DNA from: Candidatus Babeliales bacterium
GTDB lineage: Bacteria; Babelota; Babeliae; Babelales; JACPOV01
Direction: 5' to 3'
DNA: 64,000 nt
NCBI GenBank assembly: GCA_020054235.1
Contig: JAGVLQ010000026.1
Span: forward strand, 505 to 64,504
Each line of letters begins with the position of its first letter. Position 1 is the stretch's first letter. A program made the translations under genes and the position numbers. This document shows, in pieces, positions 38,285 through 46,517 of the stretch. Under the pieces are notes generated by a model, which saw only the letters and a list, made by a program, of their open reading frames with translations, was not told the origin of the DNA and ran no database searches.

Positions 38285-38872
38285 ATGTTGATCAGACATG
38301 AAGGCATTGTGTTAAAAAATTATCAACCAAAAAAAGAAAAAGTTGCCGTACTTGATGTGCATGCTGGCAAAATAGAATGTTTTATGCCTGCGCAACCAAA
38401 AGAAGTGCATGTCGGTAGCTTGTTGCATTATTTTCCAACAAAAGTTGGCGCTTTATATGCATTACAAAATGTTGAAGTTATTCACGTTCCTTTAGCGTTA
38501 GCGCGGCATGATTTATATTTTTTTCATACAATTTTAGAGCTTTGTTATTATTTTTTGCCACTTGATGCGCCAACGGATTCACTTTTTTCTTTGATCTATT
38601 TTTTGTTATATAACTATGAAAATGTGCGGACGGCAGAGCAAAAAAAAATCTTTTTGTTGCGGTTTTTTGTGCAGGTAGGAATGTATCCGGAACAAGAATA
38701 TGGGCTTGATGAATGTATGCATTATTTGCTTTCCGGACCCGTTGAGGTTATCTTTAAAATGAATGTGCGTATTCCGGAACAAGAGCTTGAGCGATGGTTA
38801 GAATCGTGTATTGAAACGCATCCGCAAAAAGCCAAATTTAAAACTATGGTCTTAGGGTGTGATAATGTTTAA
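38285..38872 (+). CDS. recO: Divergent RecO-like DNA repair protein
   Basis: N-terminal EGIVLK...V.VLD...GKI OB-fold pattern, then a helical LEL...LP...LF..L and LLRF...G..P domain. Confidence 0.55.
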   Translation: MLIRHEGIVLKNYQPKKEKVAVLDVHAGKIECFMPAQPKEVHVGSLLHYFPTKVGALYALQNVEVIHVPLALARHDLYFFHTILELCYYFLPLDAPTDSLFSLIYFLLYNYENVRTAEQKKIFLLRFFVQVGMYPEQEYGLDECMHYLLSGPVEVIFKMNVRIPEQELERWLESCIETHPQKAKFKTMVLGCDNV

Positions 38873-41800
38873 GGTTAGATTTTTTTATACAATTTTGAGT
38901 TTTTTTTCTCTTATTGGTAGTCAGCCTCTTGTGGGCGTAAATATTTTTGATCCTACAAAGTTATTTACGCCAGAAAAAGATGAGCGTGAAGTACAATTAA
39001 AGCATTTAAAGGAAGATTATCAAAAAATAAAAGAACAAACTCTTGGAAAATTAAAAACATTACAAGAAAATATTACGCATGTTGATCGCACGATCAATGA
39101 AGTTAAAAATCAGCTTAAAGACGCGGCATCAACTGATCAAGAATTTTTACAAAAAAAGCTTTCATTATTGAATGAAACATATCAAACGAAACTTGATATT
39201 CAATTTACGCTCAAAGAAATTCCCGTTACGGTTGAGCAACAGATTAAAATATTAGAAGAATATATAAAAGACCCTGAATTTAAAGGGCTTGTTCTTGAAC
39301 CCCGCTCATTTTATCCCTATGAAGTAGTACAAAGTGCTATTAAAAAAGTTTTGGATCAAGAAGAACGCATTAATAATTTAGTTCGTCAAAAAAATGATTT
39401 AGCAGCGGAGCTTGAAAACAAAAAAAAGAAACTTGCTGCAGCAGTCAAAGATTACCAAGAAAAGAAAAAAGAGCAGGAAGAATTTAGTCTAAAAGAGCCG
39501 GAAACAAAAACGGAAAGTGAATTAACGTTTAAGCAGCGAGGTGAGCTTGTTGATTTAGAAGAAAAATTAGATGGCTATGAGCAACAATTAGCGGAACTTC
39601 AAGAGCAAGCAACTGCGCGCAAGGTTGCTCTTATAAATACCACAATCTTTATTGAGCAAGAAAAGCAAAAAATACTCAAAAATAATTTAGCGCGAACAAA
39701 ATCAGGTTTGCGTATAGCCGAAACTGAAGTGCAAGAGGCAAAAGAAAAGCTTGATAAGCGCAAACAGCAAGCTTTGACTATAAAAGATGCTCGTTACGAA
39801 GAAATAAAAAAATTATCAGCAGCACGTGAAAAGCTCAAAAAAGAATTGGAAGTTTTGAGCAAGCGTCTTAATGCTCCTATTTTAGAAAAAGAAGAACTGA
39901 GTGCTTGGAGTGTAGAGCAGCCATCCGTTGAGGCATATATTGCATTATGCGAGTTAGGTTTTAAAAATACACAGATTCAAGCAATTGAACGCAAAATAGA
40001 TTATTTACATGAAGAAATTCAGTTAGAAAATGCAAAGCTACAAAGTCATGAAATCAAATATGTTATTTTGATGACTTGGTATGATTTGGCACATCACAAG
40101 TATAAAGATAATGATGAAATTTTAGGTGAATTAAAAAAATTCAAGGAACGAGAATCTGAAATTAATAGAGAAATCAATTCATTTCAGGACAAACGTAATG
40201 CCGCAATTAATAAATTGAATTTTCAAAATAAAGAGCTTACTAATCTTCGTAATTTTGCATTGGAGATTCAAAAAGAAAAAGATACTATTTTCAAGCGTTA
40301 TCCAATGCGCTATCAAACATGTTGGGCTAGACTTGGTGATGCAGAAAAGATGATTGGTGAACAAATTGATGTTAACGGAAAATTAATTGAAATTTATTCC
40401 AATATTATTACCGTTTTGCAAGGTACCAATAAAGAAATAAACAATATTACTGCGGAACTTGAAACAAAAAGTATTTGGCAGCGTTCTCAATATGCTATTT
40501 CTTGGCAGGGTTTAAAGAATATTGGTCCCGATTTAGTGTATTTTGTTGCAGATCTTTTTCAAATTGGTAAATCTTTTCTAGTAAATCTCAGTTGGCGGAA
40601 TTTGGCGGGTGCGTTTTCTCAATTGCTTCGTTCTCCTGCTAAAATTTTGCTTTGGATTATTGTATTTATTATTATTATTTCATTTTTCTTGTTATTGCGT
40701 CGCCGTTTGCCGGAATTTGCAGAATATCTTCTTGAGTTTCGTCCTACAAATCCTTTAGGGTTAATGGCTCTTAAGACTATTGGTTGTTTTGTATTTTTTC
40801 TTCAACGTAATTTAGCATGGCTCTATGGTTGGGTAGTGCTTTTTTATATGATTCACGTTGATGTTATTACAGAACTTTTTACGCAGATTTTGTTTTATGT
40901 GTGTTCCATTCCTTTTTTGATTTATTTTGCGCGTAAATTTACCTATTTTTTTGTTTCATGTAATCGTAAAAATAAATTTTCAATTTTTAGTGAGACCTTT
41001 GAGCGACGTTTTATTGTTGTTTTTTCAATATTTGCCTATTTGACTATTTTTGTTTTATTTTTCAGAGAAGCATTCATGTTGGCGACGGTACACAAATCTG
41101 AGCTTCCGCGTATTTTGCTTGCAGGTTATTCGATTTTCTTACGTACTTTATTGATTTTTTCTATAGGCAAGGAAGAAATTCTTGCATTAATTTCTAAGCG
41201 CGGTGCAATTGGCGCATGGTTGGCATACATAATTGATGATTACTATTATCCACTTATGATTGGCATTATAGTCTTTATGATTATGAGTGACCCCTATGTT
41301 GGCGGTTATGGCAGCCTTGTTTCTTATATCGTTTGGGGTTCAATTGGTACTATAATTTTGGCGCGGCTTTTGTATCTTGGTCATACTTATTTGAAAAAAT
41401 ATTCAGAGCAAATATTTTTTTCAACGGATGAAGAAGTCAAACGGGAGCGGTTTGGTTATGCAAAAACATGGTATGGAGTTTTTGCTATATTCCTATTTGT
41501 TGTTTTTGTGCTTTTAGGAGTAACGCTCATTACTAAAATTTGGGGTATTCCGCTCTTTTTTGAAGATATGCTTAAAGTTTTGGATTACGGAATTTTTTCT
41601 ACAGGGATCGAAAAAGGGCAACCTATTTGGTTTACGCCGCGAAAACTGTTATTTGTATTAGGGTTTATTGTTACCGGCTTTCTTGTGTCAGCTGCTTTTA
41701 ATAGGTTTGTCCTGCATCGCATTTTTGATATTTTACCCGTTGATGTAGGCATTCAAAATACCGTTCAAAGTATTATTCGTTATTTGGTCATTGTTATTGC

Positions 41801-42440
41801 AGTTTATATTGGTTTTCAATGGGCCAATCTCGGTAATCTTTTAATAGCGCTTGGTATCGTTTTTGGTTCTATTGGTTATATTGTCAAAGAACCGTTGGGT
41901 GACTTTATTTCCTACTTTATTATTCTGGTACAACGTCCAATTCAGATTGGCGACTTTATTATGCTTGATGAAAACACACAGGGTGTGGTTCGTAAAATTA
42001 CGCCGCGCTCAGTTATTTTGCGCAGAAAAAATAGTTATACCATTATTTTGCCAAATTCAACGATTCTTACGCATCCGGTTAGCAATTGGAGTTATGGCAG
42101 AAATTTTATGGCCTTTGATGATATTTATATGACTATTAATTATTCCGCAGATCCATTTCAAGTACGAAAGATTATTTTAGAAGTGCTTGATCAAAATACT
42201 GATGTGTTAAAAAGTCCTGCACCGGTTATTCGTTTACATGAATTTGGCGAATATGGTTTTGTGTTTTTGATTCGTGCTTTCGTTAGCAACATTAACGTTT
42301 TGCGCCGGTGGGATATTGCCAGTGATGTACGTTTTGCTCTTGTAGCAGAGCTTCGTAAAAACAATATTAAAATTGCTATTCCAGCTCGTTTGGTCTACCA
42401 AGATGAAAAAACGCACCAAAAACCACCTATTGACGGCTAA
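38859..42440 (+). CDS. Large MscS-family mechanosensitive channel (MscK-like) with a long coiled-coil N-terminal domain
   Basis: Signal peptide, ~520-aa coiled coil, transmembrane region, then RPIQIGDFI, G.V..I..RS, IILPNS, NWS. Confidence 0.88.
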   Translation: MIMFKVRFFYTILSFFSLIGSQPLVGVNIFDPTKLFTPEKDEREVQLKHLKEDYQKIKEQTLGKLKTLQENITHVDRTINEVKNQLKDAASTDQEFLQKKLSLLNETYQTKLDIQFTLKEIPVTVEQQIKILEEYIKDPEFKGLVLEPRSFYPYEVVQSAIKKVLDQEERINNLVRQKNDLAAELENKKKKLAAAVKDYQEKKKEQEEFSLKEPETKTESELTFKQRGELVDLEEKLDGYEQQLAELQEQATARKVALINTTIFIEQEKQKILKNNLARTKSGLRIAETEVQEAKEKLDKRKQQALTIKDARYEEIKKLSAAREKLKKELEVLSKRLNAPILEKEELSAWSVEQPSVEAYIALCELGFKNTQIQAIERKIDYLHEEIQLENAKLQSHEIKYVILMTWYDLAHHKYKDNDEILGELKKFKERESEINREINSFQDKRNAAINKLNFQNKELTNLRNFALEIQKEKDTIFKRYPMRYQTCWARLGDAEKMIGEQIDVNGKLIEIYSNIITVLQGTNKEINNITAELETKSIWQRSQYAISWQGLKNIGPDLVYFVADLFQIGKSFLVNLSWRNLAGAFSQLLRSPAKILLWIIVFIIIISFFLLLRRRLPEFAEYLLEFRPTNPLGLMALKTIGCFVFFLQRNLAWLYGWVVLFYMIHVDVITELFTQILFYVCSIPFLIYFARKFTYFFVSCNRKNKFSIFSETFERRFIVVFSIFAYLTIFVLFFREAFMLATVHKSELPRILLAGYSIFLRTLLIFSIGKEEILALISKRGAIGAWLAYIIDDYYYPLMIGIIVFMIMSDPYVGGYGSLVSYIVWGSIGTIILARLLYLGHTYLKKYSEQIFFSTDEEVKRERFGYAKTWYGVFAIFLFVVFVLLGVTLITKIWGIPLFFEDMLKVLDYGIFSTGIEKGQPIWFTPRKLLFVLGFIVTGFLVSAAFNRFVLHRIFDILPVDVGIQNTVQSIIRYLVIVIAVYIGFQWANLGNLLIALGIVFGSIGYIVKEPLGDFISYFIILVQRPIQIGDFIMLDENTQGVVRKITPRSVILRRKNSYTIILPNSTILTHPVSNWSYGRNFMAFDDIYMTINYSADPFQVRKIILEVLDQNTDVLKSPAPVIRLHEFGEYGFVFLIRAFVSNINVLRRWDIASDVRFALVAELRKNNIKIAIPARLVYQDEKTHQKPPIDG

Positions 42441-42656
42441 TTAATTATTTTTTCTTTTTATGGTAGCAATTAATTTGCTCCATAGGCCTGAGAGCATAAA
42501 GCCGTAAATTATCATGGAAAGTGCGGTGAGCACTAAGATCCAATTGAGCCATTTTTCTAGAATACCCAAGGTATGCAGCAATAAAATACTGCCGCCTACA
42601 ATGAGCACCGTGCCACGGAATTGAGCGCTGAAATCATCCCAATTAATACCAAACAT
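42441..42656 (-). CDS. Small two-helix membrane protein
   Basis: 71 aa, two hydrophobic helices and a basic C-terminus. Confidence 0.6.
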   Translation of the reverse strand: MFGINWDDFSAQFRGTVLIVGGSILLLHTLGILEKWLNWILVLTALSMIIYGFMLSGLWSKLIATIKRKNN

Positions 42657-42711: not shown

Positions 42712-42963
42712 TTATAATTTTGATTTTAATTTTATATCGGGGAACTTTTTATCAAACTCTTGTTGAGATGGTTTTTGCTCTAAGAGGTTTGTAGCCTGTA
42801 TGCTAGATTCTTGAGGTTTTTGTGCATTATGTTGGCTATTTTTTTGGAGAGCTTCGATTTGTTTTTGCTGTTTTTCAATTTCTTCTTCTAAATCTATTAT
42901 ATTGAGCATAGTTGGAAGGTGGCTAAACAGAAGCGTAAAGGCTAGTAAGTAAACTTCAAACAT
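42712..42963 (-). CDS. Small protein with a hydrophobic N-terminus, ending in PTS1-like -KSKL
   Basis: AAGGA RBS. MFEVYLLAFTLLF...FPDIKLKSKL*. Confidence 0.7.
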   Translation of the reverse strand: MFEVYLLAFTLLFSHLPTMLNIIDLEEEIEKQQKQIEALQKNSQHNAQKPQESSIQATNLLEQKPSQQEFDKKFPDIKLKSKL

Positions 42964-42975
42964 TTTTTTCCTTTA

Positions 42976-43248
42976 TTATAATTTTGATTTTGGAGGTATG
43001 TTGTCTTCAAGGAAATTCTTATACAAAACTTCTTTTCTTTTGCCTCGAGTCATTTTGAGTAGATCTTGGATAGTCAATGGTTTTTTTTCGTCAGACTTAG
43101 GTGCAATATTATTTGTAGAATTATTATTTTTCGCTTTCGTTTCTTCCTGAGATTGTTTAGGTTGCTTTTGTGGAACATCATCATTAGATTTGATACCAAA
43201 AGATAACGAAGTTGCTAAAAAAAGAGAAATATGAAAAATAGTACGCAT
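42976..43248 (-). CDS. Small signal-peptide protein ending in PTS1-like -KSKL
   Basis: CAGGAG RBS before ATG 43248. MRTIFHISLFLATSLSFG...DNIPPKSKL*. Confidence 0.7.
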   Translation of the reverse strand: MRTIFHISLFLATSLSFGIKSNDDVPQKQPKQSQEETKAKNNNSTNNIAPKSDEKKPLTIQDLLKMTRGKRKEVLYKNFLEDNIPPKSKL

Positions 43249-43267
43249 TGGGTTATGAGCTCCTGTA

Positions 43268-43522
43268 TTATAATTTAGATTTGATATTTTGCAACATTCT
43301 TTCGAGTTCTTCTTTTGTTGGAGAATTCGGTTCTTTTTTTTGTTCATGTATTGTTAATAATATTTTACTTGGTTCTTTGCTCTCTTTTTTCTGGCAAGGA
43401 GATTTTTCCTGCGCTTGCTCTAATCTTTTTTTATTCTCTTGTTCAATTTTTTCACTTTTAATGTAAAAATCAGCTGCAATAAACATTGATAATAGGCTGA
43501 GCATAATTCCTTCAATGATCAT
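43268..43522 (-). CDS. Small protein with a hydrophobic N-terminus, ending in PTS1-like -KSKL
   Basis: AAGGAG RBS at the end of the upstream gene. MIIEGIMLSLLSMFIAA...MLQNIKSKL*. Confidence 0.7.
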   Translation of the reverse strand: MIIEGIMLSLLSMFIAADFYIKSEKIEQENKKRLEQAQEKSPCQKKESKEPSKILLTIHEQKKEPNSPTKEELERMLQNIKSKL

Positions 43523-43526
43523 TACT

Positions 43527-44126
43527 TTACTCCTTTAAAAAACCCTCAAGGGGCCATGGTTTAGAAAAATCAATATGATAATCGATTAATGGCTGGTGAT
43601 GGACCAAGAGTTGGATTGATTTTAGTGTAATTTTATTTTTTCGCAAGGTTTTTAAAAGGCTTTCTATCCATAACCATTTATCAAAAGCTATATTTTTTTT
43701 TTCAAAAGGATTGCGGTCAAACGAAATATAAGCCTCCTGTCCTGAAGGACCTATGGCAACAGATTGGAGTGAAATTTTTTTGTTATTAGTTTTTTCTTCA
43801 TCAAGAAAGGCAAGCCAGGCAATAAGCACGTATTCCAGTGTTTTTATGAGATTGTCTGACCATATAATTTCCACGATTTCATGTTTCCATGCCTCTTGAT
43901 CCCAGACGTATAAGGTTACCTTTTTTTTAGAAACTATGGAACTTGGTTTTTCAAAAATTTGGGTGGCGAATGGTTTGAGAAAAATTACATACTGGTGGGC
44001 CAAGTACAAAAAAATGCCAAGTAAGAAGGTTAAGCAACTGATAAGGATGCAATGTAGTTGTTTCATGAAAATAAATTTTACCTTATTGGCCGATTGATTT
44101 AAAGAATTTTTTATTGCGTTCCTCAT
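43527..44126 (-). CDS. Membrane-anchored protein, GerMN-like
   Basis: N-terminal transmembrane helix, VTLY, AYISF, W.WIESL.KTL...IQLLV pattern reminiscent of GerMN. Start uncertain. Confidence 0.45.
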   Translation of the reverse strand: MRNAIKNSLNQSANKVKFIFMKQLHCILISCLTFLLGIFLYLAHQYVIFLKPFATQIFEKPSSIVSKKKVTLYVWDQEAWKHEIVEIIWSDNLIKTLEYVLIAWLAFLDEEKTNNKKISLQSVAIGPSGQEAYISFDRNPFEKKNIAFDKWLWIESLLKTLRKNKITLKSIQLLVHHQPLIDYHIDFSKPWPLEGFLKE

Positions 44127-44351
44127 AATTCAGTATGGGCGTACATAGATTTTTTTTGGTGTGCCTACATTAACTATACTCTTAAAAAGTAAAACGTAAA
44201 AATTTAAAAAATTTTATTTTAAACAAAAAAAACCTTTTTTTAAAATAAAAAACGTTCTTTTGTATCATTTAGTAAGATTTTCAAATCTTGTCAGGTTGAT
44301 TTTTTCTGGCATACTAGGACCAGGTTTTTTACATAAAGTTTTTGGAATCCT

Positions 44352-46517
44352 ATGCACCAACTGTTTTTTATCCTATTTCTGTTTTCGCAAATACTAATCC
44401 CGTATGCCGTTTCACTTGAACAATATAAATATGAAACGGTTAAACATAAACCAAGAGCGGTTGAACTTCCTGAAGCTCAAAGGTTGCATAAATCATTTTT
44501 TGCAATTGGTGCGGCACTGAATCATCAGCCAAATTCATACAATGGTCTGAGTGCCAAGGATTTTGCGTATTATCACAATAAAGATAGGCAAACGTATTAT
44601 GTATGCTTGGTGCAAAATCTTTTTTTACTTAACAACGGCAATGAGCTTGAACGCGCAAAAGTATTTAATGCCATCGCATTTGGCAATCATCCGGCACAAT
44701 ATCATGATGTGCTATCTGCGTTGCTCAAAGTGTTACAAGCAAAATGTGATGATACGGGCAAACTGGTAAATCTTGAGCGCGATCCGTATTTAACTGCCTG
44801 TATTTACCAAGCGCTCAAAGATGCATTGCCACACAAAGTTTACCTTGATGTGCTCAAAGCTATGAATGACACAACGAGCGTTGAGTTGTTAGAAGCCGAA
44901 CAATCGTATACTTTTTTTGGCTACTATTGGACCAAGTTTTGGGAATCACTGAATCGCTTATTAAATGACTACACAAAACGCTCTTCCTGCTCATGGAACC
45001 AAATTATCAACCATCCGTATAATCTGAAATTGAAAGAACTTTTTTACCATATTGATCATAAAAATTTATTCGATGCGCAAGAAATTGCCAAGCAAGATCC
45101 GCTGTATGCGCAGATGTTTTCATGGTGCTGTAATGATTTTATTGCACAGCAAAAACAGGCGCAGGCGATCGCCAACCAAGAAACAGAAAAACTTGCACTC
45201 ATTGAAGATTCATGCCCCTTTTCTTTAGACAATGCAACGCATGAGCTTGAACGTGCACAAGCACTTAATGAAGCATTAGCAGAGCCAATGTTTGCACACA
45301 AAACTTTTTTACTGAGCAAACAAAGTGAAACATTGCTTAATGCAGTTGGCATAAACCCAAACCATTTTAAACAGTGCTATGGCAACCAAGTGCAACAAGC
45401 GTTGCATACTGAACACCTGCAAATCATTGAAGCTTCTGCAGGCATCTATTTTGTGCCCAATCAACGGCAAATGATCAAGGATATCATCGAGCACACGGTG
45501 CACTTTGTAGACAGTGCGCGCCAATACAACAAAGTTGGTTACGTACAAAAAGCTATCACGGGTACCGATTGCTGCTGGGCATTTTTAGAATGTGCACAAA
45601 GCATTGCCAAAGGAGTTGGCAAAGGAGTGTACCAAGGCACTAAAAATTTTGTTGATTATGCGGTGGACCATCCTGTTGAAGCGCTTGCACGGCCCTTGGT
45701 TGGTAACTTTATTTTAGCGTATCGCCTTGGCCACCTGACAGCACAGCTCATTAACGCCGGCCGCATCGGCGTGAGTGCTTGGCGCGGTGATGAAAATGCG
45801 CAACAAGAATGGGACCAAATCTGCACCAATATTACTGCAGTAAAAGATGCGTTAGCACAAAAATGCAAAACGTTGTCACTCGAAGAAAGCGTGCAGCATG
45901 CCACGGCGTTTGTGACCGAAACATTCCTTGATTATAAATGCGCCAACATGCTCAATAAATTCTACCAAACCGGTGAGCGCAAAACCCTAGAACTGATTGA
46001 CCAACTCAAAAACAATATTCCACCACCACCGCTTCATGCCGTTGCTCTGACTCCAGAAGGCTTTCCGATCGGCATTGCGGGCCAGGCCGCAGCAGTTGCA
46101 ACGGGCAACACAAACTCAGTGCTTAAAAAACTTGAAGACTTCGGTGGTGGTAATAGTTTATTTGCTTCGATGGAAAAAACTGGTAGAGGAAAATCTGGTG
46201 GGGATAAAACAGAGCTAGATAAAAATCAGCCAAGTGACAATGAACCAAGGTTTATTAAAGAGAAAGATGTACCAAAAGATAAGGAAACCATTTTAGCAGA
46301 TCCTTCATTTAAAAAAACAAATAAGTTTTTTGACGATGCGCGTATTTATGTGAAAAATGGCTTTTATTATTATAGGGATCAAATGCACAAAGGGAAAAGA
46401 GCTCACTTGGAAGTTTTTAATAAGCGAGGAAAGCATTTAGGTGAAGCAGATCCTTTGACAGGAATATTAATTCCTAATACTGCCGATAAAACTAAATCAA
46501 TAAAAAATTTAATATAA
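44352..46517 (+). CDS. Polymorphic toxin: signal peptide, uncharacterised body, C-terminal colicin E3-like (Cytotoxic) RNase domain
   Basis: C-terminal YYYRDQMHKGKRAHLEVFNKRGKHLGEADPLTG matches the colicin E3/cloacin pattern D-x-x-H...LE...G.HLG..DP.TG. Followed by a run of small genes. Confidence 0.8.
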   Translation: MHQLFFILFLFSQILIPYAVSLEQYKYETVKHKPRAVELPEAQRLHKSFFAIGAALNHQPNSYNGLSAKDFAYYHNKDRQTYYVCLVQNLFLLNNGNELERAKVFNAIAFGNHPAQYHDVLSALLKVLQAKCDDTGKLVNLERDPYLTACIYQALKDALPHKVYLDVLKAMNDTTSVELLEAEQSYTFFGYYWTKFWESLNRLLNDYTKRSSCSWNQIINHPYNLKLKELFYHIDHKNLFDAQEIAKQDPLYAQMFSWCCNDFIAQQKQAQAIANQETEKLALIEDSCPFSLDNATHELERAQALNEALAEPMFAHKTFLLSKQSETLLNAVGINPNHFKQCYGNQVQQALHTEHLQIIEASAGIYFVPNQRQMIKDIIEHTVHFVDSARQYNKVGYVQKAITGTDCCWAFLECAQSIAKGVGKGVYQGTKNFVDYAVDHPVEALARPLVGNFILAYRLGHLTAQLINAGRIGVSAWRGDENAQQEWDQICTNITAVKDALAQKCKTLSLEESVQHATAFVTETFLDYKCANMLNKFYQTGERKTLELIDQLKNNIPPPPLHAVALTPEGFPIGIAGQAAAVATGNTNSVLKKLEDFGGGNSLFASMEKTGRGKSGGDKTELDKNQPSDNEPRFIKEKDVPKDKETILADPSFKKTNKFFDDARIYVKNGFYYYRDQMHKGKRAHLEVFNKRGKHLGEADPLTGILIPNTADKTKSIKNLI

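Follow-up and report, generated by a model that had tools for sequence, protein, structure and literature searches.

Why should three adjacent small proteins of a bacterium, otherwise unalike, all end in the same four residues, K-S-K-L? The three genes, named here ORF3, ORF2 and ORF1 in the order in which they are read, lie in a window of 64,000 nucleotides (the whole stretch of DNA that was analysed, G000:C5:505-64504) from Candidatus Babeliales bacterium. G000 denotes this source genome, G001 that of a sister species of the same genus, and G000-G009 are 10 genomes of one GTDB family. The end of the tail is that of the canonical type 1 signal for peroxisomal targeting (PTS1) bound by the receptor PEX5, and the original prediction held that a protist parasite exports these proteins to enter host peroxisomes or to act as PEX5 decoys. 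The tail is found to be conserved at the protein level and is probably the functional part of the proteins. The single most likely mechanism, advanced here tentatively, is that ORF1-3 are Sec-exported PTS1 mimics bound by host PEX5.

ORF3 (43268..43522, minus strand) encodes 84 aa with a hydrophobic N-terminus, a K/E/Q-rich body and the tail ...QNIKSKL (tail codons 43271-43282 and stop 43268-43270). Its start is only 4 nt past the stop codon of an upstream gene of 199 aa, and its ribosome-binding site (RBS), AAGGAG at 43530-43535, 7 nt before the ATG, falls within the 3′ end of that gene. ORF2 (42976..43248, minus strand) encodes 90 aa from an internal ATG, with CAGGAG at 43260-43265, 11 nt before the ATG, a low-complexity body and the tail ...IPPKSKL (codons 42979-42990); its longest frame starts at 43347 and would give 123 aa overlapping ORF3. 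ORF1 (42712..42963, minus strand) encodes 83 aa, with AAGGA at 42969-42973, 5 nt before the ATG, a hydrophobic N-terminus running into a predicted long helix, and a predicted disordered tail ...IKLKSKL (codons 42715-42726). Public gene callers (NCBI, JGI, Logan) give the same three products of 84, 90 and 83 aa. The tail codons of all three read AAA TCA/TCT AAA TTA TAA. The original description of the ORFs (co-orientation, sizes, RBS, hydrophobic N-termini, K/Q/E-rich bodies, KSKL tails and codons) was correct in every detail checked, and SKL is found at the end of no further ORF of the window, as had been stated. An origin of the three from the break-up of a single gene was considered and dismissed, since each has an RBS, start, hydrophobic N-terminus and tail of its own.

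At the syntenic position G001 has a single ORF of 69 aa. It is preceded by a GGAG of its own, starts with a hydrophobic stretch, continues in a body rich in P, K and Q, and ends in TPKSKL. A four-way alignment of this orthologue with ORF1-3 shows 21-28% identity, and the only invariant columns are M1 and the K-S-K-L end. In BLASTP no pair among the four proteins reached E<0.1, with the tail included or removed, and the earlier claim that the proteins are otherwise dissimilar is borne out by both comparisons. Lys is found at -4 in all four proteins, and position -5 is L, P, I and P. Keeping four residues across three further sequences at 25% identity per site has a probability of about 6e-8. 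The G001 tail is written AAA TCC AAG CTC TAA, which differs from the G000 copies at 4 nt positions, all synonymous, and KSKL is therefore kept at the protein level and not as a pure DNA motif. The GerMN proteins encoded by the 199-aa gene and its G001 counterpart are only 43% identical. Tail conservation in orthologues, which the original prediction had proposed to check, was seen in one of one (G001, ...TPKSKL), and the different codons speak against the shared DNA-level motif that it had named as an alternative.

The same sequence is present in other metagenomes (four sequencing runs), and no RNA run was listed as containing it. One metagenome contig, with about 5% divergence, spans a portion of the ORF2 body and has 7 changed codons there, 6 of the 7 non-synonymous and mostly charge swaps; this is a single contig with a depth of about 3, which begins inside the tail at low depth and says nothing on the tail. 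By these comparisons the body would drift or diversify freely with the tail held, and the only element apparently kept by selection is the free C-terminal KSKL.

The family has a very narrow distribution. A profile of the four sequences found only those four among 5.8 billion clustered proteins in a word-indexed search, an exhaustive hmmsearch of 1.84 billion representatives returned only the same four proteins, and all four members are singleton clusters; a scan of genome contigs with a single member protein gave one irrelevant hit. In 201 genomes of the order the founding family was found in two genomes only, other matches having E of at least 0.003 and ending before the tail, and ORF1-3 gave nothing above threshold in Pfam, NCBIfam or ESM Atlas. 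The loci downstream of the 199-aa gene were read in 28 genomes, and small ORFs with a PTS1-type end occurred only in G000 and G001, the only other ORFs with such an end being two of 31 and 36 aa that were taken as noise. The 199-aa gene is directly followed by the gene of a small two-helix protein in G002, G004, G010, G023 and G030; in G025 about 340 nt lie between the two. Since the two-helix gene adjoins the GerMN gene in relatives, the KSKL genes are a genus-level insertion, expanded to three copies in G000. ORF1-3 are real tandem genes and constitute a genus-restricted orphan family inserted in a conserved envelope operon.

G000 has 2,639 ORFs of at least 60 aa. SKL closes 5 of them and KSKL 4, namely ORF1-3 and a 320-aa hydrolase on contig C18, relative to 0.07-0.13 KSKL ends expected from the internal 4-mer frequency; three of these four lie side by side. 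Of all C-terminal 4-mers in the genome KSKL is the most frequent, but because some C-terminal 4-mer attains four copies 88 times in 2,000 per-position shuffles (4.4%), the bare count is weak, and the argument rests on the adjacency and the orthologue. The 15-mer AAATC[AT]AAATTATAA occurs three times in the genome, always at the ends of ORF1-3, and is no dispersed DNA repeat. G000 has no general sign of eukaryotic C-terminal motifs, with 3 CaaX ends observed and 2.6 expected, and no KDEL-type ends. Separately from these, three ORFs of 73-76 aa end in FILS (C5:65062-65283, just outside the window, C6:25065-25286 and C17:115291-115521), and may represent small ORFs or repeats of one dispersed family.

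In the 10 family genomes all K-S-K-L-stop sites were collected and each was examined for an ORF of at least 60 aa. Such ORFs number 4 in G000, 2 in G001, 1 in G006 and 1 in G009, and there are none in G002, G003, G004, G005, G007 and G008; outside G000, 4 of the 29 KSKL-stop sites in the family close such an ORF. With the founding family counted once there are about 5 independent cases relative to 0.71 expected from G000 frequencies (Poisson p 8e-4). The value becomes 6e-3 without the founding family, and is the same if the G009 protein is taken as a diverged founder member (four cases). All eight KSKL-ending ORFs have hydrophobic or signal-like N-termini, as judged by eye for the hydrolase, a 158-aa ORF of G001 and the G006 ORF, and by hydropathy score for the others. 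The residue at -5, which was outside the search pattern, is L or I in all four non-founder cases (p 0.0012), and L, I, V or M precedes only 3 of 12 internal KSKL occurrences.

These further proteins differ in kind. The 158-aa protein of G001 has a signal peptide and ends LIKSKL. The 82-aa protein of G009 (L155:1-249 on G009:C38, minus strand) has a strong RBS and resembles the founders in build, being hydrophobic at the N-terminus, rich in Q, K and S in the body and ending KRLKSKL; it lies at another locus and is missed by the founder profile. An orphan of 94 aa with a signal peptide is found only in G005 and G006 among the 201 genomes searched, two species of another genus, and its tail is QKLKSKL in G006 (L087:1231-1515) and QKLRAKL in G005 (L106:1501-1785). 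These orthologues are 57% identical, only 3 of the 11 residues ahead of the tail are the same in both, and the S to A and K to R changes in the G005 tail both stay inside the PTS1 consensus. The C18 protein, alpha/beta-hydrolase-like and of 320 aa (L049:2078-3040, G000:C18:61077-62039), carries a signal peptide as well as a hydrophobic C-terminal helix and ends LKSKL with AGT for Ser; it is a member of a multi-copy Babeliales family in which other members keep the C-terminal helix and have other tails. Gene annotations exist for the G009 protein (as a hypothetical protein), the G001 proteins and the G000 hydrolase. What is new relative to the original prediction is that KSKL also ends other small N-terminally hydrophobic ORFs and one hydrolase in the family, without detectable similarity to the cluster.

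At the other end of the founder proteins the hydrophobic N-termini start at residues 1-6 and reach a best 15-residue Kyte-Doolittle mean of 1.6-2.2 in ORF1-3, or 1.6-2.5 with the G001 protein. The N-terminus of ORF2 is signal-peptide-like, with one Arg, a hydrophobic core and then S-F-G, the cleavage site being judged by eye. In ORF1, ORF3 and the 69-aa protein of G001 no basic n-region precedes the core, and both a signal peptide and an anchor are possible. An AlphaFold2 model of ORF1 from the four-row alignment has a mean pLDDT of 65, with helices at 2-13 and 16-47 and a low-confidence C-terminal half that is mostly coil (residues 48-65 with pLDDT <50, the last block averaging 46); the tail is accordingly modelled as disordered, and would be accessible. 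ORF1 matched Pfam DivIC (PF04977) at E 0.013 and 15.7 bits, below the cut-off of 28.9, and was not assigned to FtsB/DivIC; the genes are absent from most relatives.

Could such proteins be meant for a host? Dependentiae are widespread, almost uncultured parasites of protists, and the 'protist parasite' of the original prediction fits what the genome holds. G000 comprises 1.25 Mb in 29 contigs, with 35% G+C and 95% completeness. The G001 orthologue is likewise labelled Candidatus Babeliales bacterium by NCBI. Three ATP/ADP translocase genes are found in G000 and none in 14 control genomes, and ankyrin repeats give 45 matches in about 18 ORFs. By its gene content G000 is the genome of an intracellular energy parasite. 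A signal-like N-terminus is seen in 14 of the 18 ankyrin ORFs and in 44% of all ORFs (crude hydropathy rule, p 0.004), and in Chromulinavorax destructans signal peptides are reported for 78% of the ankyrin proteins as compared with 44% of coding sequences (PMC6561590). From this excess, mirrored in Chromulinavorax, it follows that the presumed host-directed proteins of the phylum would leave via Sec. Two secretins are present in G000, secretins are reported for all TM6 genomes (PMC4776705), and Legionella provides a reported precedent for type II secretion substrates in the host cytosol (PMC5478897).

If ORF1-3 are PTS1 mimics, their products would be exported via Sec and would then exit by the type II secretin pathway or in vesicles, as is assumed for other Dependentiae effectors with signal peptides. 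In the host cytosol the exposed tail would mimic PTS1 and be bound by the TPR domain of PEX5. Three effects could ensue: PEX5 would be occupied and matrix-protein import competitively slowed, the proteins would be carried into peroxisomes, or an N-terminus anchored in the surface of the parasite or vacuole would tether PEX5 or peroxisomes to the parasite. Occupation or tethering would be likelier than delivery of an activity, because the proteins have no enzyme domain.

The PTS1 consensus is given as (S/A/C)(K/R/H)(L/M) (PMC11811301), the S-K-L-stop of ORF1-3 and of the G001 orthologue fits it, and KSKL itself has been used as a 'prototypic PTS1' on reporters (PMC3084667). An arbitrary conserved tripeptide would match the consensus with a probability of about 0.2% (with L, K and S frequencies from the genome and other residues estimated). 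This low chance of coincidence, together with the placing of the tail on small proteins of an obligate intracellular bacterium, is why PEX5 mimicry is favoured. Free-living amoebae are reported to have peroxisomes and PEX5 (PMC7549135), and peroxisomal import is reported to accept long disordered proteins (PMC13167868). A wider proposal, made with still more reserve, is that one Babeliales family uses [L/I]-K-S-K-L-COOH as a host-directed tag, with Sec/type II mini-proteins, and perhaps a lipase-like hydrolase, that would flood or tether PEX5.

Compared with known systems, ORF1-3 share with the PTS1 cargo of PEX5 an identical extreme C-terminus, a basic residue at -4 and, in the ORF1 model, a tail predicted to be flexible, but they are bacterial, lie behind an N-terminal signal-like segment and have no enzyme domain, and their exposure in the cytosol and PEX5 binding are putative. 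The nearest bacterial case is Salmonella SseI (SrfH), the PTS1-like GKM end of which is called by its authors the first functional PTS1-like signal in bacteria (PMC11811301). SseI is likewise a bacterial protein with a C-terminal tripeptide, one reported to direct it to host peroxisomes, but it is a 37-kDa enzyme-like type III (SPI-2) effector with a non-canonical tripeptide; the KSKL proteins have the canonical tail, are of 7-10 kDa, disordered and in a tandem family, and no type III marker was found in G000. The earlier remark that no bacterial PTS1-decoy operon had been described must be qualified by SseI to the extent that a single PTS1-like signal is published there. Legionella MavP, from an intracellular, amoeba-adapted bacterium that exploits peroxisomes, is described as a type IV effector recruiting peroxisomes via PMP70 and not via PTS1; it differs in binding a membrane protein, and PTS1 serves there only as a reporter tag (PMC12042894). 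The ankyrin putative effectors of Chromulinavorax are of the same phylum and presumably take the same signal-peptide route, but are defined by repeat domains and not by a C-terminal linear motif. A full-text search for literature linking Dependentiae to peroxisomes, judged by titles and the starts of abstracts, returned none.

Several observations weigh against PTS1 mimicry. Entry into the host cytosol, PEX5 binding and action on import or as a decoy are all inferred parts of it. The count of termini that the original prediction had asked for gave a divided answer: KSKL is above expectation (4 relative to 0.07-0.13), but ends of the broad consensus [SAC][KRH][LM] are not enriched in G000, with 3 observed and 2.5 expected among 1,298 non-overlapping ORFs, all 3 being KSKL. 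Of 45 RSKL, RAKL and KAKL sites in the family only 1, the G005 case, ends an ORF of at least 60 aa, a difference from KSKL sites that is not significant (Fisher p 0.07). Since PEX5 accepts many variants, near-exclusive KSKL may indicate a narrower reader or common descent. The motif classes and the 'independent cases' were also defined after the data had been seen. Of 5 homologues of the 158-aa G001 protein no more than 2 end in [SA]KL, and the tail of the C18 hydrolase directly follows the C-terminal hydrophobic helix and is absent from its relatives, so that this KSKL may be due to chance. Five control genomes of other families had 1 of 11 KSKL-stop sites closing an ORF of at least 60 aa; this ORF, of 82 aa, starts with TTG, is not hydrophobic at the N-terminus and has K at -5, and on its account the family-level excess is modest. 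Order-wide, the K-S-K-L-stop DNA pattern occurs at about the rate of the reversed control (150 of 778 matches listed). Three of the four founder N-termini have no usual basic n-region and could be anchors that retain the protein in the bacterium. Finally, no FHIPEP (type III) and no VirB4/CagE (type IV) match was found in the 95% complete G000, and no injection machine of these types is indicated. The earlier interpretation thus stands as to the tail kept in the orthologue, conservation at protein level and lifestyle, and is weakened by the lack of enrichment of PTS1-type ends and of a type III or IV marker; targeting to peroxisomes is plausible, having survived two refutation tests, and is unproven.

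The same order-wide search gave no other tandem KSKL cluster among the matches listed (150 of 778). An unrelated observation in the family is that G003:C12:182520-187471 contains six near-identical matches to [AC]G[AC]TCCAAGTTTTGG on one strand, about 520-2,400 nt apart, which suggests a tandem gene array.

The foremost alternative is that the reader of the tail is bacterial. A hydrophobic residue followed by K-S-K-L-COOH would then be an address or docking tag read in the envelope by a protein of the bacterium itself, such as the PDZ domain of an S41 or HtrA/RseP-type protease or a lineage-specific receptor, which would dock, process or regulate the tagged proteins, and the match to PTS1 would be coincidental. 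The genes do sit in an envelope operon, between those of a GerMN-fold protein and a small membrane protein, and G000 encodes one S41 C-terminal processing protease with a signal peptide. That KSKL alone is enriched, and not the wider PTS1 family, suits a narrow reader, and the tail, with L/I at -5, a small side chain at -3 and a final L (-1), would give an alternating pattern as in strand addition. No specific reader gene is evident in G000, however, tail-specific proteases prefer non-polar ends, which KSKL is not, and the tail would have had to equal a PTS1 tripeptide, in an obligate intracellular bacterium, at the chance of about 0.2% given above. A tag of this kind is possible but on the doubtful side.

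A less probable arrangement is that the proteins are held in the inner membrane with the N-terminus outside and the body in the cytoplasm, the basic tail being a degradation signal for an AAA+ protease or a contact with the membrane or a partner. The acidic residue, and the lack of any basic one, before the hydrophobic core in three of the four founder N-termini would suit this topology, as would the modelling of ORF1 as one long helix (2-47) with its weak, sub-threshold DivIC match. Should the C-terminal helix of the C18 hydrolase cross the inner membrane, the tail directly behind it would lie on the cytoplasmic side. Nevertheless, no consistent positive-inside signal is seen around the hydrophobic cores, and cleavable-looking signal peptides in ORF2, in the 158-aa protein of G001 and in the 94-aa pair of G005 and G006 would put the tail outside the cytoplasm, which makes this arrangement improbable.

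It is very improbable that there is no selected protein function at all, that is, that the ORFs are recent tandem duplicates with 3′ ends kept as DNA (stop, a -10-like TATAAT and the next RBS) and that the other KSKL ends are chance products of a proteome rich in K, L and S. Between ORF3 and ORF2 and between ORF2 and ORF1 the junctions do share 20 of 22 nt, including non-coding bases, the stop and the next RBS (family D3), AAATTATAAT holds a perfect -10 hexamer, and one junction scores 10/12 as a promoter. TTA and TAA are common to all three copies, somewhat above the prediction from codon usage, and the 4.4% of shuffles in which some C-terminal 4-mer reaches 4 copies also points this way. Junction conservation may thus add some DNA-level conservation inside G000. 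Against this, the third junction, that of ORF1, is not conserved past the stop, the bodies have diverged beyond recognition with the tail intact, and the same residues are written in G001 with TCC, AAG and CTC and with no TATAAT after them. Other KSKL genes with L/I at -5 also use other codons (AGT in the C18 hydrolase, TCC/CTC in G001). Given the codons of G001, a -10 box or DNA motif was discarded as the explanation. As for a host-directed class I PDZ-binding motif (S/T-x-hydrophobic-COOH) in place of PTS1, the S-K-L end does fit the pattern (Ser at -2 in PDZ numbering and a hydrophobic last residue), and C-terminal PDZ ligands occur on some injected effectors of enteric pathogens, but the G005 orthologue has Ala for Ser and loses the class-defining hydroxyl, a change that PTS1 allows, and the invariant Lys (at -2 in the numbering used elsewhere here) is part of PTS1 and not required by PDZ domains, so that this reading can hardly be upheld.

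The operon in which the KSKL genes are inserted consists of five closely packed minus-strand genes, of 199 aa, ORF3, ORF2, ORF1 and 71 aa. The first of them (43527..44126, minus strand) encodes a GerMN-like membrane-anchored protein, which is conserved across the order and matched in 28 of 31 related genomes. It has no Pfam or NCBIfam match; its model has a pLDDT of 87.9 and matches in Foldseek the GerMN domains of B. subtilis GerM (6gzb, 6gz8) and of a clostridial lipoprotein (5j7r), with E from 9e-6 to 3e-3. Because this neighbour models as a GerMN-like domain, the operon context is taken to be the cell envelope. In several relatives its gene comes after an amidase-like gene, as read from N-termini. 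The last gene (42441..42656, minus strand) encodes the 71-aa protein with two hydrophobic segments. Convergent to the operon is a MscS-type mechanosensitive channel of 1,193 aa (38859..42440, plus strand; Pfam MS_channel_2nd 3.8e-14 and MS_channel_3rd 5.5e-11), which is syntenic in relatives. The operon promoter is expected in the divergent intergenic region 44127..44351, where minus-strand promoter-like hexamers at 44244-44216 and 44200-44173 are consensus matches only.

Other versions of this locus were seen. In one metagenome locus the GerMN gene is directly followed by the small membrane protein gene, without insert. A second (L103) has a decayed GerMN fragment beside short repeats matching many G000 contigs, followed by a K-rich ORF of 62 aa without KSKL that scores only 1.1 bits with the family profile. 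In G011 (L023, G011:C1:230025-235570) a GerMN-like gene of 409 aa has three copies of the small two-helix membrane protein in tandem behind it. Divergent from the operon in the window, the last 30 or so residues of a 721-aa ORF (44352-46517, plus strand) weakly match the Pfam 'Cytotoxic' colicin-type domain below threshold (E 0.0053, 17.5 bits relative to a cut-off of 22), and several same-strand ORFs of 106-268 aa without family come after it; the region may be a polymorphic-toxin-like module.

The finding would be one of host-signal mimicry or of a C-terminal address tag. To our knowledge, the hundreds of signal-peptide 'effectors' of Dependentiae have no known host targets, and SseI, with its non-canonical tripeptide, is the one bacterial PTS1-like signal in print. 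If ORF1-3 do act on PEX5, they would make up the first PTS1 system of canonical type from bacteria and would provide the first named host target of any Dependentiae effector, by a different strategy in which a receptor is occupied or tethered instead of an enzyme being delivered. The identity of the KSKL tail with the prototypic peroxisomal import signal makes this a precise and cheap hypothesis, testable without culturing the organism. Were the reader bacterial, the tail would still be a new lineage-specific C-terminal sorting or docking tag.

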